Below are positions 1-6,183 of a DNA stretch of 6,183 nucleotides, one piece after another; the stretch's first letter is position 1; each line of letters opens with the position of its first letter. The position numbers were made by a program, and so were the translations under genes. The notes below the pieces were generated by a model. The model was not told where the DNA came from, made no database searches, and was given only the letters and a program-made list of their open reading frames with translations. Origin of the DNA: a virus (taxonomy: Duplodnaviria > Heunggongvirae > Uroviricota > Caudoviricetes); IMG/VR virus record IMGVR_UViG_2617270985_000007; one strand, given 5' to 3'.

Positions 1-1131
1 TCAAATGACCAGTTTTTTCCATTCCTTACCGCGTGCGTCGTTGTAAATATCGGTCATTTTTTGATTCGAATGGCCCAGCAAAATTTTGGTATCAACCCCC
101 TGCTCTCTGAACAATCGCTCTGATAAAGATCTCTGCTCATGGAAAGAGGGTGGGGTGCCATTAGCACGCCAGTTGTAATCCACAGAATCCCGGGCTTTTT
201 TAAATGCAACGGTTAATGTTGCTGGCTTAACCATCCCGCCGCGCTTAGCTGTCCCTTTCGCGTGATGGTGGTGCAATAGCCACGGACTAAGAACGCAATC
301 GCGGCAGGATGACACCACATCATCTAGGGTGAGATTTAATTTATCGCAACGCAGAGCCAGAGGGATGGCAATCCGGGTTCCTGTTTTTTGCTGTTCGACA
401 TGAAGATAACCATCCCGGATATCCGAAAATTGCATTTTGCAAATATCTGAAAGGCGCTGGCCTGTCATCAGTGCCAGCAGCATACCGCGCTGTAAAAAGT
501 AACCATCCTTTTCCGCTGCGTTATAAATCATCATCCACTCATCAAAAGTCAGTCGCTGTCTTGATATCCGCACCTGCGGTTTTTTTGCCGATTCTGCAGG
601 GTTAAAGCCTGGCGGGACATCGCCCGTTTGCTGAGCTTCCCGGAAAACATCGATCAGTACCTTCCTGAAAATTTGTCCCATTCTGTTATGTCCTCTGGCC
701 TTGTACTCTTCCAGTACTGATACCACATCTTTTACGGTTATGGCATCTAACGGTCTGGTGCCAAAACGTTCATCAAATACCCTGAGAGGGGCCGCTTTCT
801 GTTTCAGCGTGTTGAGTTTGATCTCGCCGTTTTCATATCTTTCCTGTTGAATTTTTCTGTAATTATTCAGAAAAATGGTAACGGTTGATGAACCGCCGGT
901 ATCACTAATAATTTTCTCCTGCAGACTGAGCATTTGTTCCATTTGCTGCCGGGCAAGACGGCTGTTCGCTTCTGCTGCAATAGTTTCTGCCAGTTTCTGG
1001 TCAATACTGCCGAGACCGTGATTTTTTCCTGTTATGGGATGCCTGTAACGCCAGTAAACTTTGTTATTTCTTTTGTCAAAATACGGAGATAATCCCGGAA
1101 CATTGGTTTTATATTTTCGCGGGCGCGCCAT
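1..1131 (-). CDS. int: Lambda-family tyrosine recombinase (prophage integrase), 376 aa
   Basis: Full-length ORF whose translation aligns by eye along its length with lambda Int: N-terminal arm-binding region (RHPITGKNHGLG vs lambda RDPRTGKEFGLG), catalytic-core blocks LMTGQRLSDICKMQFSDIRDGYLHVEQQKTGTRIAIP, TPPSFHEQRSLSERL, LLGH, and a C-terminal Tyr in MTDIYNDARGKEWKKL. A GAGGA Shine-Dalgarno lies about 9 nt upstream of the ATG at 1131. The 5' end is overlapped by the upstream xis ORF, as in lambda. Confidence 0.95.
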   Translation of the reverse strand: MARPRKYKTNVPGLSPYFDKRNNKVYWRYRHPITGKNHGLGSIDQKLAETIAAEANSRLARQQMEQMLSLQEKIISDTGGSSTVTIFLNNYRKIQQERYENGEIKLNTLKQKAAPLRVFDERFGTRPLDAITVKDVVSVLEEYKARGHNRMGQIFRKVLIDVFREAQQTGDVPPGFNPAESAKKPQVRISRQRLTFDEWMMIYNAAEKDGYFLQRGMLLALMTGQRLSDICKMQFSDIRDGYLHVEQQKTGTRIAIPLALRCDKLNLTLDDVVSSCRDCVLSPWLLHHHHAKGTAKRGGMVKPATLTVAFKKARDSVDYNWRANGTPPSFHEQRSLSERLFREQGVDTKILLGHSNQKMTDIYNDARGKEWKKLVI

Positions 1132-1357
1132 CTTCCAGTATCCTCTTCAAAGCAGGGTGATCTGTGGCGATCACCTCCGGCTTGTTTACCATTCCGACAA
1201 AGCGAGCTTGCGGATCCACTCGCCAGCGTCTTCCAACTTTTTTGGGGAGAGGAAATATCATTCCGGCTTTAGCGTATTTACTTAACGTACTCGGAGTTGG
1301 GACCGGTTCACTGAATTCCTCTTTTGCCCACTCAGTGAGCAGAATAAGTCTTGCCAT
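1109..1357 (-). CDS. xis: Excisionase (Xis-like recombination directionality factor), 82 aa
   Basis: Small ORF immediately upstream of int on the same strand, overlapping its start by 23 nt. It contains the W..(K/R)..GMIFPLPKKVGRRW motif, resembling lambda Xis (W...IFPPPVKDGRE). No strong SD is visible, so the exact start is less certain. Confidence 0.8.
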   Translation of the reverse strand: MARLILLTEWAKEEFSEPVPTPSTLSKYAKAGMIFPLPKKVGRRWRVDPQARFVGMVNKPEVIATDHPALKRILEDGAPAKI

Positions 1358-1421
1358 GAGCGTCGTTCGCTAATCATGGTCGCCGCCACTATAGCTGGTG
1401 GGCAACGACCGGGGTTGAACA

Positions 1422-3893
1422 TTAAAAATCAGCCTGGTTCGGGATCAGTTTTTGCCAGATAACTGAAACGTATTTTGCCTGGTAACGGGCGTCATCAAGT
1501 GCATTATGGCGCTCACCTTCGAATGGAATAGCCGTTCTGGCATCGAAGTCTATGGCTTTCCCCAGCTCAACGATTGTGCGTACATCGCGATCGTTGTAGT
1601 AACGCCACGGGCAGGGGATCCCCTGCCGTTCGTATGAACGGCGCAAAATCGTGTTGTCGAAGTTGGCTCCATTTCCCCAGACCTGAACAAAAAATTCACC
1701 GGAGTTTTCGTCGATAAATTCCCGCAATTGTAACAGTGCATCATCTAACGGGATTTCATCGGTCATAATGGCAGACTGCGCTTCACGTGATTGCTTCAGC
1801 CACCTTTTAATGACGTCACGATCAATGACTCCGCCAGCAGTTTCCAGATCGATAGTCTTACTAAATTCCGGTCCCATATCTCCGGTTTGCGGATCGAAAA
1901 ATATTGCACCTATTGAGATAATCGGGGCATCAGGATTTTTTCCCATGGTTTCAAGGTCGATCATTAGATGGTCACACGTCCTGCTGGTGGATGTGATAAC
2001 GTGATGACCGTTCATCGTAATTAAGGGATCTGCCGTCTCGCCAGTTTCACTATCGCTGGCGTGATCCTGAGCGCTACCAGCATTCTCCTTGTGTGGATGT
2101 TCAGCGCCTTCCATTTCCTTCGGATCATTTTCCTGAACTTCAACCTGATTCTCTTCATCGAATGTTTCCTGGTATGTTGCGTCACCCATCACCGCGCCAC
2201 AATCAGGGCAGTTGCCGCCACCGCTTTGACCGCAGGCGGTGCAGACTTTTTCCGGTTCCTGTTGCGCTACTGGCTCAGGTTGTTTCGTTTCTGGCTCGTT
2301 TTGTTGCGTATTTGGGCTGTTTTGTTCCGCTTTCTGGTCGTTCTGTTCCGATTCTTGCTGGTTCTGGTTTACAGAATCGCGGGTTTCAATCCCCTTTACC
2401 CATTTCGGATCATTCGGGTCGCTAATCCCTGCAACAAATTCTCCGCGAGAGGCAGCAAGCAACTTATCGGCGTCAGGCTGGCTGATATTGGCTGCCTGCA
2501 TAATTTTGTTTACTTCGTCAGCGGTAACTTTTACCGGCTCTGGTTGTGCGGTCGTGTCAGATGCACCAGTATTTTGTTGTGAACCTGAGTACGTGCCGTT
2601 TTTACGTGCGAAGTATTCCTCTTTTGTGATTTCCGTAGCTCCCAAGGCTAGTGCTTTTTCCAGACCAGAAAGTTTGTTTGCGCGACCGTATTTTTCGCCA
2701 TCCTTGTCGGTGAAGAGGAAGTAGAACGGCCCCTCACGCTCTACAGATGGTTCGACTTCCACTTTGCATTCGGTTTTTTCGTTGCCCGGAATTGCCGTTT
2801 CCACTGCATCAGTTTCTGGTACTGGCGACGAGAGAGTATCAGTTGCGCTCTGATTTCTTCCTTCATCTTCAAACACGCCCTTTGTAGTCAGGTATTCAGT
2901 AATGTATTTGTTCAGTGCCACAGGGTCTTTGTGAATGTCGATCGGACGTTCACGGACAAGGCCAAAAATAGTCTGGCGGTCGTAGCGAAGGGCATCAGGC
3001 TGTTTGCGCATTGATGCCGAGATACGCTTCCAGTCTTCGCGGTCGTTGTCGATAACTTCATTTTTTGCCCAGCGATGGATGCTGCCGTCAATGTTTCCGG
3101 CATCCACATCACCAGGCCAGAGAGCGTAGGCCAGTTCGTCATCCAGTGTTTTCCATGTCTGCTTGTATTCGCGATGAATGGCAGCAATGACCGGGCTGAT
3201 TTTTCCTGTTGAATTTTCAGTGTACTGTTGATTGGCTCTGGCGCGGGCGAGATCAACAACAGACGTGTATTTTCCGGTTTCCTTGCGTTCACCTTCGCGA
3301 CGTTTTTTCCAGATGCGCATCTCTGCCTGAATTTCGGGCCATTTAGCACCAGGAATACATTTATGCTTAACCCACCCAATGGCGTGCAACTTAAGCTCCG
3401 GATACATGGCGTTAACTTCTGGCATTTTCATCAACGCTTCAACGATATGTCCGTCGAATGTTGCCATGTCTTCCTGCAACAATTCCTGTGCGCTAATAAC
3501 CATATCAACGGTGATGTTTTCACATGTGTCGAACTTAACCATGACAGCGTTCTGTACTTCAGGGGCCAGCTTGTCAAAAGTGACGTTCATCGGATCGGAT
3601 TCAGTCTCAACCGGGACAAAAGATGCAGACTCCTCATCCCAGCGGTTTTCCTGCATATATTCAGCATCCCATGAATCGAGGGCTGGGCGGGGTATGCCAG
3701 GTTTATCCTCGCAGATAATAAATTTATAAGCGCAGTCCTGAGCAGCCGGATAATGTTCCAGGAACTGCCAGTGAAATTTTGCTCGAGCACGGCGTTCGTC
3801 GCCAGCTTCAATGGCTGTGGCTACAGCCACCGCGCTTTCTTCCCTTGTTGCCAGTTCGTCAGGAATAGCGGCGCAAATAAAGACTTTACTCAT
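1422..3893 (-). CDS. Prophage exonuclease, 823 aa: N-terminal region of the kind usually annotated exodeoxyribonuclease VIII-like, a C4 zinc ribbon, and a C-terminal DnaQ/PolIII-epsilon-like DEDDh 3'-5' exonuclease domain
   Basis: Long uninterrupted ORF upstream of xis in the pL-operon orientation. The C-terminal ~185 aa carry the three DEDDh motifs: Exo I MIDLETMG, Exo II VWGNGANFDNTIL, Exo III HNALDDARYQAKY. CTACGQSGGGNCPDCG (aa 551-566) is a C-x2-C-x7-C-x2-C zinc ribbon. Acidic Q/E/P-rich linkers flank the ribbon. A GAGG lies about 10 nt upstream of the ATG at 3893. Confidence 0.9.
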   Translation of the reverse strand: MSKVFICAAIPDELATREESAVAVATAIEAGDERRARAKFHWQFLEHYPAAQDCAYKFIICEDKPGIPRPALDSWDAEYMQENRWDEESASFVPVETESDPMNVTFDKLAPEVQNAVMVKFDTCENITVDMVISAQELLQEDMATFDGHIVEALMKMPEVNAMYPELKLHAIGWVKHKCIPGAKWPEIQAEMRIWKKRREGERKETGKYTSVVDLARARANQQYTENSTGKISPVIAAIHREYKQTWKTLDDELAYALWPGDVDAGNIDGSIHRWAKNEVIDNDREDWKRISASMRKQPDALRYDRQTIFGLVRERPIDIHKDPVALNKYITEYLTTKGVFEDEGRNQSATDTLSSPVPETDAVETAIPGNEKTECKVEVEPSVEREGPFYFLFTDKDGEKYGRANKLSGLEKALALGATEITKEEYFARKNGTYSGSQQNTGASDTTAQPEPVKVTADEVNKIMQAANISQPDADKLLAASRGEFVAGISDPNDPKWVKGIETRDSVNQNQQESEQNDQKAEQNSPNTQQNEPETKQPEPVAQQEPEKVCTACGQSGGGNCPDCGAVMGDATYQETFDEENQVEVQENDPKEMEGAEHPHKENAGSAQDHASDSETGETADPLITMNGHHVITSTSRTCDHLMIDLETMGKNPDAPIISIGAIFFDPQTGDMGPEFSKTIDLETAGGVIDRDVIKRWLKQSREAQSAIMTDEIPLDDALLQLREFIDENSGEFFVQVWGNGANFDNTILRRSYERQGIPCPWRYYNDRDVRTIVELGKAIDFDARTAIPFEGERHNALDDARYQAKYVSVIWQKLIPNQADF

Positions 3894-3986
3894 TTTGTTT
3901 TAACCTCATGACAGATTTAAGGATGAACAAATCCCTGCCATTGCTGGCATATAAGAATGAAACCGGATATTTATTACGGAACTGTT

Positions 3987-4178
3987 TTAAAGACCTGCCG
4001 GGATTTCGATATTATCCTGGTGAATAACTTTATCGACCGGGTAACAGTTACCGGGAATTTTCTGTTCGGTTGCTGCAGTCATACACTCCTGCATTGTCCT
4101 GTGAACACTGACTGCAATATCAACTGGCTCTCCGGAAACAAGAAAAACTGTCAGAACAAGCGCAAATGCTGAATTCAT
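3987..4178 (-). CDS. Hypothetical small protein (63 aa) with an N-terminal hydrophobic signal-peptide or transmembrane segment; function unknown
   Basis: ATG at 4176-4178 (minus strand) is preceded by AGGA with about 8 nt spacing and overlaps the stop of the upstream ORF in an ATGA arrangement. The translation MNSAFALVLTVFLVSGEPVD... has a hydrophobic N-terminus followed by a polar region with two Cys. The six-frame track extends this ORF to 4232 (81 aa), but that start lacks an SD and would overlap the upstream ORF by 58 nt. Confidence 0.5.
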   Translation of the reverse strand: MNSAFALVLTVFLVSGEPVDIAVSVHRTMQECMTAATEQKIPGNCYPVDKVIHQDNIEIPAGL

Positions 4179-4363
4179 TGTGCACATCCTTTTGGCATCA
4201 GACGTAAACGAGCCAGCATTGAAACAATGCATATTTTATTTAATAGCTCCCGTTCTTGTTTTCTCTTGTTAATGGCATCTTCAGTAAATACAGGGTTACT
4301 GATAGTGACACCAATTTCAAAACAACCTTCAGACGTATTAACGTTTGGTAATAACGTTTTCAT
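4175..4363 (-). CDS. Hypothetical small protein (62 aa), basic central region (KRKQERELLNK); function unknown
   Basis: ATG at 4361-4363 (minus strand) is preceded by GAGGA with 7 nt spacing. Its stop overlaps the start of the downstream small ORF (ATGA coupling). Same strand and orientation as the exo-xis-int operon. No recognisable domain by eye. Confidence 0.45.
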   Translation of the reverse strand: MKTLLPNVNTSEGCFEIGVTISNPVFTEDAINKRKQERELLNKICIVSMLARLRLMPKGCAQ

Positions 4364-4462
4364 TATCGCGTCCTCAACAATGAATTTTGTGATGCAGTGC
4401 CTGGTGCCTCCAGGTGACGTTAACCAGTTAACAATTAACGCCGGATACCTTCTGCCCGTAAG

Positions 4463-5599
4463 GTGAATGGTAAGGCGCTTTCAGCGGATATAACACTGAC
4501 GCCGAAAGATATTGGTACGCTTAACTCAACAACAATGTCATTCAGCGGTGGTGCTGGTTGGTTCAAATTAGCAACGGTAACCATGCCACAGGCGAGTTCT
4601 GTTGTTTCAATTACGTTGATTGGTGGCGCGGGATTTAACGTGGGGTCACCTCAACAGGCAGGTATATCTGAACTTGTTTTGCGTGCAGGTAATGGTAATC
4701 CGAAGGGGATTACTGGTGCTTTATGGCAGCGCACATCGACAGGGTTTACAAATTTTGCCTGGGTCAATACATCTGGTGATACTTACGATATTTACGTTGC
4801 AATCGGAAATTATGCGACTGGTGTAAATATTCAATGGGATTATACCAGTAATGCCAGCGTGACGATTCATACGTCACCAGCATATTCTGCTAATAAGCCG
4901 GAAGGGTTAACGGACGGTACAGTTTATTCACTCTATACGCCATCAGAGCAGTTTTATCCGCCTGGCGCACCAATCCCGTGGCCATCAGATACCGTTCCGT
5001 CTGGTTATGCCCTGATGCAGGGGCAGAGTTTTGACAAATCTGCTTACCCGAAACTTGCAACCGCTTATCCGTCAGGCGTGATCCCTGATATGCGTGGCTG
5101 GACGATTAAGGGCAAACCTGCCAGTGGTCGGGCCGTATTGTCTCAGGAACAGGACGGCATTAAATCGCACACCCACAGCGCCAGCGCATCCAGTACGGAT
5201 TTGGGGACGAAAACCACATCGTCGTTTGATTACGGCACTAAATCCACGAATAACACCGGGGCGCATACGCACAGTGTGAGCGGTACAGCCGCAAGTGCCG
5301 GAAACCATACTCATAGTGTCACAGGCGCATCAGCAGTCAGCCAGTGGTCACAAAATGGGTCAGTACATAAGGTAGTGTCTGCGGCCAGTGTGAATACAAG
5401 TGCTGCAGGAGCGCACACTCATAGTGTCAGCGGCACAGCTGCATCTGCAGGTGCTCACGCACATACTGTCGGTATTGGTGCTCATACGCACTCTGTTGCG
5501 ATTGGCTCACATGGACACACCATCACCGTTAACGCTGCTGGTAACGCGGAAAACACCGTCAAAAACATCGCATTTAACTACATTGTGAGGCTTGCATAA
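4463..5599 (+). CDS. stf: Side tail fibre protein, C-terminal receptor-binding module (378 aa as drawn); probably a 5'-truncated gene fragment
   Basis: Translation contains the conserved phage fibre-tip block [48 protein letters not shown], followed by repeated H-x-H motifs (HTHS x4, HAHT, HGHT) typical of T4 gp12/gp37-like and lambdoid Stf tips. The ORF opens with GTG at 4463 immediately after an in-frame TAA (4460-4462) and has no SD, so this is likely the 3' part of a formerly longer gene. The first in-frame ATG is at about 4535. Confidence 0.8.
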
Positions 5600-6183
5600 T
5601 GGCATTCAGAATGAGTGAACAACCACGGACCATAAAAATTTATAATCTGCTGGCCGGAACTAATGAATTTATTGGTGAAGGTGACGCATATATTCCGCCT
5701 CATACAGGTCTGCCAGCAAACAGTACCTATATTGCACCGCCAGATATTCCGGCAGGCTTCGTGGCTGTTTTCAACAGTGATGAGTCATCGTGGCATCTCG
5801 TTGAAGATCATCGGGGTAAAACGGTTTATGACGTGGCTTCCGGCGACGCGTTATTTATTTCTGAACTCGGCTCATTACCGGAAAATGTCACCTGGTTATC
5901 CCCGGAAGGGGAGTTTCAGAAGTGGAACGGCACAGCCTGGGTGAAAGATGCAGAAGCAGAAAAACTGTTCCGGATCCGGGAGGCGGAAGAAACAAAAAAC
6001 AGCCTGATGCAGGTAGCCAGTGAGCATATTGCGCCGCTTCAGGATGCTGCAGATCTGGAAATTGCAACGGAGGAAGAAACCTCATTGCTGGAAGCCTGGA
6101 AAAAGTATCGGGTGTTGCTGAACCGTGTTGATACATCAACTGCACCTGATATTGAGTGGCCTACGAACCCTGTCAGGGAGTAA
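5599..6183 (+). CDS. tfa: Tail fibre assembly protein (Tfa family chaperone), 194 aa
   Basis: Complete ORF starting [39 protein letters not shown]..., which matches the N-terminal signature of enterobacterial lambdoid Tfa proteins as I recall them (TfaQ/TfaR-like). A GAGG lies 8 nt upstream. The start ATG overlaps the stf stop (TAATG at 5597-5601), the canonical stf-tfa coupling. The stop TAA is the last three bases of the window. Confidence 0.93.

Follow-up and report, generated by a model that had tools for sequence, protein, structure and literature searches.

The locus described here raises the question whether two short overlapping ORFs on the minus strand of a 6,183-nt stretch of tailed-phage DNA (the whole analysed stretch, hereafter the window) are genuine genes and, if so, whether they stand for a function that has not been described before. 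A sequence-only reading of the window had singled them out as its best candidate for such a function. It had placed two ORFs, a ribosome-binding site for each (GAGGA and AGGA) and an ATGA in which stop and start overlap, and all of these elements are found where they had been put (Table 1). The reading had also called the upstream product of 62 aa basic and soluble-looking, in agreement with a pI of 9.0 and the lack of any hydrophobic span. Its description of the downstream product of 63 aa as a protein with a hydrophobic start is borne out by a membrane-type segment at the N-terminus (MNSAFALVLTVFLVSG) with a Kyte-Doolittle 19-residue maximum of 1.87 over residues 5–23, followed by an acidic remainder with Cys32 and Cys45. 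The window contains 70 ORFs of at least 30 aa, and ORFs of the size considered here are frequent by chance, so that the gene status of the pair has to rest on homology and conservation rather than on ORF length.

Table 1. Features of the window (position 1 is its first nucleotide).
Feature	Position	Strand	Details
Integrase gene	1–1131		
Excisionase gene	1109–1357		
Exonuclease gene, 823 aa ('exo' of the sequence-only reading)	1422–3893	-	Pfam Rv2179c-like 3'-5' exonuclease, E=3e-63; PHROG 2082 exonuclease
Terminator-like hairpin between ydfD and the exonuclease gene	3936–3949	-	Pattern scan
ydfD-like ORF, 63 aa	3987–4178	-	ATG 4178–4176, stop ends at 3987
dicB stop/ydfD start overlap, ATGA	4175–4178	-	Read from sequence
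dicB-like ORF, 62 aa	4175–4363	-	ATG 4363–4361, TGA 4177–4175
Shine-Dalgarno AGGA, (A)AGGA, of ydfD	4187–4190	-	8 nt before ATG, within the 3' end of dicB
Shine-Dalgarno GAGGA of dicB	4371–4375	-	7 nt before ATG; read from sequence
Conserved 58-nt dicB leader core	4390–4447	-	Hairpin 1 4442–4416, single A 4415, hairpin 2 4414–4400
Deletion junction, dicB leader/antisense truncated tail-fibre gene	4442–4448	.	Homology ends from both sides
N-terminally truncated side tail-fibre gene	4449–5599	+	Listed ORF starts at GTG 4463; Pfam Collar, Phage_fiber

The upstream product is identical to DicB of E. coli K-12 (b1575) at 62 of 62 residues and matches the Pfam family DicB (PF05358, E=1.9e-40, 136.8 bits with a cut-off of 27, residues 1–62 on model positions 1–62) as well as the NCBIfam model NF049927 'cell division inhibition protein DicB' (132.8 bits, cut-off 100). 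The downstream product shares 62 of its 63 residues with YdfD of K-12 (b1576) and matches DUF1482 (PF07358, E=2.1e-26, 92 bits, cut-off 25) with residues 4–61 on model positions 1–57. NCBIfam holds no model for YdfD, and the RefSeq name of the genes matching ydfD is 'lysis protein YdfD'. The single difference between the two YdfD proteins lies at residue 6 within the hydrophobic segment, with Ala in the window and Val in K-12, and the allele of the window is the commonest one among the sampled loci (50 loci). The likeness to the K-12 prophage Qin extends beyond the proteins: the ribosome-binding site of dicB, its 85-nt leader and the 4-nt overlap with the neighboring ydfD are shared, and ydfD is followed by the same exonuclease gene. 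In PHROGs both proteins belong to families labelled 'unknown function', which shows only that this resource trails the literature. Neither small protein was matched by the anti-phage defence families of PADLOC, and a search of solved structures yielded no relative of DicB or YdfD at E up to 1.

Judged by sequence, positions 4175–4363 and 3987–4178 are thus the already known genes dicB and ydfD, which are near-universal in E. coli. With products 100% and 98% identical to named and studied K-12 proteins, and with both matching curated families above threshold, the suggestion that neither could be assigned to a known family had to be given up, and with it the idea of an undescribed function. The class of function that had been guessed, host killing or superinfection exclusion, agrees well with the published work on DicB (PMC6832061) and YdfD (PMC8835842). 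We are highly confident that the pair represents the distal genes of the early-left dicBF operon of lambdoid phages of the Qin/mEp460/PPompW type, intact and most likely transcriptionally orphaned. As both genes are named, widespread and experimentally characterised, the window is no source of a new small-protein function; its use is rather that of a worked example, a decaying prophage which has kept two toxic genes after losing their regulator.

Of 5426 complete E. coli genomes, 4514 were hit by a megablast search with positions 3800–4600, the genes under the hits being annotated as dicB and ydfD, and the block is shared by lambdoid phages, live or newly described, among them mEp460, HannyBb, Tritos and the PPompW family. 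For comparison we gathered over 300 related loci, drawn from viral contigs, metagenomes and genomes. A 62-aa DicB frame is present in 176 of them; the ATGA overlap is retained in 163 of these, in keeping with the translational coupling proposed by the sequence-only reading, and a 63-aa YdfD frame follows in 139, most of the other loci having YdfD-like frames that differ slightly in length and a few having broken ones. In two viral contigs (L019 and L103) the dicB stop codon is missing and the reading frame runs on from DicB into YdfD (...KGCCTMNSAFALV...), a fusion that may be genuine or may stem from a sequencing error. Pooled pN/pS values of 0.48 for dicB and 0.35 for ydfD point to purifying selection on both genes. 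A comparison of 61 distinct YdfD variants, the most distant at 44% identity, shows conservation of the hydrophobic N-terminus, of G16-E17, of the EQKIPG motif and of EIPAG; of the two cysteines, Cys32 never varies and Cys45 reaches at least 90% conservation.

The sequence-only reading had named a conserved plus-strand ORF, at 3957–4172 or 4227–4466, as what could be the true gene in place of two chance ORFs on the minus strand. Both plus-strand ORFs are indeed open in the window, yet among 34 alleles less than 90% identical to it they are open in only 2 and 12 cases, respectively, compared with 32 for the dicB frame and 25 for the ydfD frame, and it is the sense products that match curated HMMs. 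We therefore rejected the plus-strand ORFs as real genes and regard this alternative as having a negligible probability. The two minus-strand ORFs had been taken for real genes from their signals, and the Pfam matches, the kept overlap, the pN/pS values and the open sense frames bear this out.

The gene order int-xis-exonuclease-ydfD-dicB is common to the window, Qin of K-12, mEp460 and PPompW and corresponds to the left arm of such phages. The exonuclease is the intact form of the K-12 pseudogene ydfE, with a DEDDh/Rv2179c-like 3'-5' domain at the C-terminus; only its middle segment resembles RecE (exodeoxyribonuclease VIII), with 283 bits far below the cut-off of 1269. Integrase and excisionase form a module of the PPompW type (95.9% identity over 1–4448) and not of the Qin type. 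Upstream of dicB the similarity to these relatives breaks off. In alignments with K-12, mEp460 and PPompW, homology reaches no further than 4448, a point 85 nt before the ATG of dicB, and homology to a full-length stf begins at 4442, with the crossover at an imperfect microhomology (GTATCCG in the leader, GTACCCG in stf). The truncated gene beyond it matches the distal portion of a prophage stf of 972 aa at 99.6% identity and is followed by a tail-fibre assembly gene (5599–6183). We conclude that a deletion spans dicF through the immunity, replication, lysis, head and tail genes. By Rfam, DicF scores 76.7 bits upstream of dicB in K-12, mEp460 and PPompW, and the window gave no DicF match at any E up to 1. 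Compared with Qin, the window thus carries dicB and ydfD without dicF, ydfABC, the DicA-repressed promoter dicBp or the DicA operator, and its dicB leader abuts the truncated tail-fibre gene instead.

In K-12 a single polycistronic transcript from dicBp covers ydfABC-dicF-dicB-ydfD with the pair in distal position; dicBp is repressed by DicA and relieved by the antirepressor Rem (PMC10448788). The longest species found, a transcript of 1,608 nt, ends after ydfD and does not extend into ydfE (PMC10448788), and the terminator-like hairpin of the window (3949–3936) fits this published 3' end. No promoter was found inside the dicBF operon, with no evidence for one upstream of dicB (PMC10448788), whereas PMC11430063 cites a promoter listed upstream of dicB in RegulonDB. 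A crude consensus search yielded no sigma-70-like site on the minus strand between 4364 and 6183, and the leader itself was rejected as a sigma-70 promoter, as it contains no consensus match. Since the deletion has removed dicF, ydfABC and the DicA-controlled promoter, the pair, though intact, has most probably been left without its promoter and is probably silent. The promoter scan was a crude one, and given also the RegulonDB entry as cited in PMC11430063, some residual expression of dicB-ydfD may occur.

Published work describes what the two proteins do. DicB binds MinC and takes it via ZipA to midcell, where MinC depolymerises the FtsZ ring and the cells filament; the interaction of DicB with MinC also inhibits the inner-membrane proteins ManYZ, and expression of the operon raises the resistance of cells to lambda and other phages using ManYZ for entry about 100-fold (PMC6832061). 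Over-produced YdfD leads to rapid lysis, and it is dividing cells that are affected (PMC8835842). Co-expression of DicB or SulA prevents this lysis (PMC8835842; for dicB also PMC11430063), which argues that lysis needs active division. Direct binding of YdfD to IspG was reported by pull-down, SEC, ITC and FRET, the lysis is rescued by over-expression of ispG or by the IspG product, and both termini of YdfD are required (PMC8835842). For the window, where identity and gene structure of the pair are established as described above, the activities can be expected from near-identity to the tested K-12 proteins: the cytoplasmic 62-aa DicB would recruit MinC to midcell via ZipA, so that the FtsZ ring would be dismantled and division would stop, and the DicB-MinC pair would block ManYZ and thereby exclude phages that inject their DNA through it. 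The 63-aa YdfD would be translated by coupling to dicB and would bind and inhibit IspG, leaving the envelope starved of isoprenoid carrier, so that dividing cells would lyse.

The IspG mechanism comes from one paper and sits uneasily with the anchor-like N-terminus and the Cys pair of YdfD, which would also suit a periplasmic domain. A different account, closer to what the sequence-only reading had in mind, makes YdfD a peptide that is exported or anchored in the membrane, with an acidic and disulfide-bonded C-terminal part acting in the periplasm or in the membrane at the division site. No positive charge precedes its hydrophobic N-terminus, which is followed by V-S-G|E as a possible signal-peptidase site, the C-terminal part is net-negative (7 acidic and 3 basic residues), and the conservation of both cysteines over variants as distant as 44% identity would fit as well, as would the dependence of lysis on active division. 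The binding of IspG seen by four methods and the rescue by ispG or the IspG product speak against this account, which we consider unlikely, if worth keeping in mind. We think it improbable that the two genes form a toxin-antidote-like pair, in which coupled translation would always provide the division-blocking DicB along with YdfD and so hold lysis in check. The conserved ATGA overlap, the co-occurrence of dicB and ydfD in almost all loci and the prevention of lysis by dicB co-expression would be expected from such a pair; DicB is itself toxic, however, and SulA protects equally well, so that the protection appears as an indirect effect of stopped division and not as a specific neutralisation. 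The missing PADLOC matches for both proteins point the same way.

Whether the pair still serves its host is a separate matter. It may be an intact but silent relic, useless to the host and kept only because the deletion is recent, and to this we give somewhat less than an even chance. None of the 5426 complete E. coli genomes has the exact junction of the window, so that the event may well be young, and the loss of dicBp, ydfABC and dicF, the negative promoter search on 4364–6183 and the published finding of no promoter inside the operon (PMC10448788) would all leave the genes unexpressed. Against this reading stand the intactness of both frames, both ribosome-binding sites and the overlap, and the repeated finding of comparable dicB-ydfD remnants without a promoter in many strains unrelated to one another, which could mean that they are tolerated or that they are useful through read-through transcription.

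Across 96 distinct sequence contexts, the leader core of about 58 nt shows conservation of at least 90%. It precedes DicB variants down to 55% identity with the protein of the window, and it is also found in front of kilR, of a 42–53-aa hydrophobic ORF in phage-plasmids of about 90 kb and of another short ORF. The RNA is predicted to fold into two hairpins with one A between them, the second of which is CCUGG-AGGCA-CCAGG, and ten variants differing in the sequence of hairpin 1 have the same two-hairpin architecture. Hairpin 2 shows covariation: its one variable pair is a G-C in 20 distinct sequences and a U-A in 11, and mismatches never occur, even though the search pattern allowed any bases at this pair. 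Against Rfam, the leader gives a weak match to STnc100 (RF02076; 21.8 bits, gathering score 47), restricted to model positions 90–140 and including the invariant hairpin ACC(G/U)GGAGGCACC(C/A)GG. Full copies of STnc100 in a viral contig (L321) score 61–78 bits and contain the same invariant hairpin. The two-hairpin unit is the central and most conserved part of the STnc100 family. In contrast to STnc100 itself, the leader is a fragment which lacks the 5' domain, the closing helix and the terminator, and a full STnc100 gene was rejected as an explanation, with scores below threshold in the window and ten related loci. We found no paper containing the leader sequence in a literature search. Elsewhere in the leader, at 4359–4384 on the minus strand, a 10-bp RNA hairpin is predicted to pair the dicB start codon with an upstream UUCAUU and to leave GAGGA in its loop; the fold of the whole dicB leader was not significant against shuffled sequences (z = -1.79).

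KilR of Rac and Kil of lambda occupy the same place on the phage map as DicB and have the same broad effect on FtsZ-dependent division, and kilR shares the conserved 58-nt two-hairpin leader with dicB. Both proteins are unrelated to DicB in sequence and, unlike it, act on FtsZ and are not known to need MinC. The leaders of kil-type phage genes are hereby connected with STnc100, an RNA family that is poorly understood.

The same leader element marks the place where deletions end. The window carries one of at least 13 independent prophage deletions, with distinct junctions which join (N)TATCCG(G/A)CGTTAA... at the same nucleotides (in the window GTATCC, 4443–4448), each to a different truncated rightward phage gene: tail-fibre genes three times, a DUF968 gene, a replication protein gene, a methyltransferase gene and others (window, L001, L003, L074, L089, L093, L135, L217, L218, L229, L251, L256 and L258). 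The undeleted partner was recovered for every junction, and almost all show a short imperfect GTATCCGG match at the crossover. A mirror event was found in one genome (L095), where the dicF side, retained as far as ...CTCTGTA, runs into the host gene rspA. In a breakpoint census of 128 loci, picked out by protein similarity and examined across some 1.15 kb in front of dicB, 8 partner classes were counted at the 6-nt foot of hairpin 1 and 1–3 at every other breakpoint. A leader variant noted in loci L003, L217, L229, L251, L298 and L299 is TATCCGACG, a G to A change in the region corresponding to 4439–4441 of the window, which lengthens the perfect DNA inverted repeat of hairpin 1 to GACGTTAA...TTAACGTC. 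This variant occurs in about 5 of 13 deletion classes compared with 18 of 237 undeleted loci; as the loci are not phylogenetically independent, its higher frequency among deletion junctions is suggestive only.

Taken together, we tentatively propose that an STnc100 core has come to lie before unrelated toxic genes (dicB, kilR and the small membrane ORF), and that the base of its hairpin 1 is a site-specific deletion hotspot which again and again deprives lambdoid prophages of immunity, replication, lysis and structural genes; we hold this for possible rather than probable. Candidate causes are template switching driven by the hairpin, a bound protein that arrests replication, or the action of a recombinase on secondary sites. 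Replication-arrest sites behave as deletion hotspots, and by analogy our best guess is that the hairpin, or a protein sitting on the GTTAAT/GTTAAC repeats, may make DNA synthesis stall or switch template. A quasi-site of a Pin/Hin-type invertase or a secondary att site of Int was not adopted, as only TATCC resembles their crossover sites in a comparison by eye, and as the integrase module that accompanies the hotspot differs between the window and L003/L217. We likewise rejected a Chi-like protection of the end that was kept, the nearest Chi-like octamer having two mismatches and lying about 40 nt inside. If a defined cause could be assigned, the hotspot would represent a built-in route of prophage domestication. 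A recurrent endpoint, precise to the nucleotide, at the foot of a conserved RNA/DNA hairpin would offer an easily testable model of prophage disarming, and it could outweigh the identification of the genes; the leader element and the hotspot are the part of this analysis worth following up.

Some further RNA-related patterns were noted in the collected loci and in the window. In the phage-plasmids L007 (1792–2817) and L196 (4364–5546) the leader and the 42–53-aa ORF, which is hydrophobic with a basic C-terminus, lie within a tRNA gene cluster, and L007 has a gene of a type I toxin family nearby. The viral contig L321 carries an array of four tandem STnc100 matches (4349–5513; three full-length, one partial) together with an isrI match, located between a Q-like gene and the holin/endolysin genes. 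Finally, the window itself contains a full-length match to Rfam IS009 on the plus strand (5942–6140; 225.8 bits with a gathering score of 117), which falls within the tail-fibre assembly gene.
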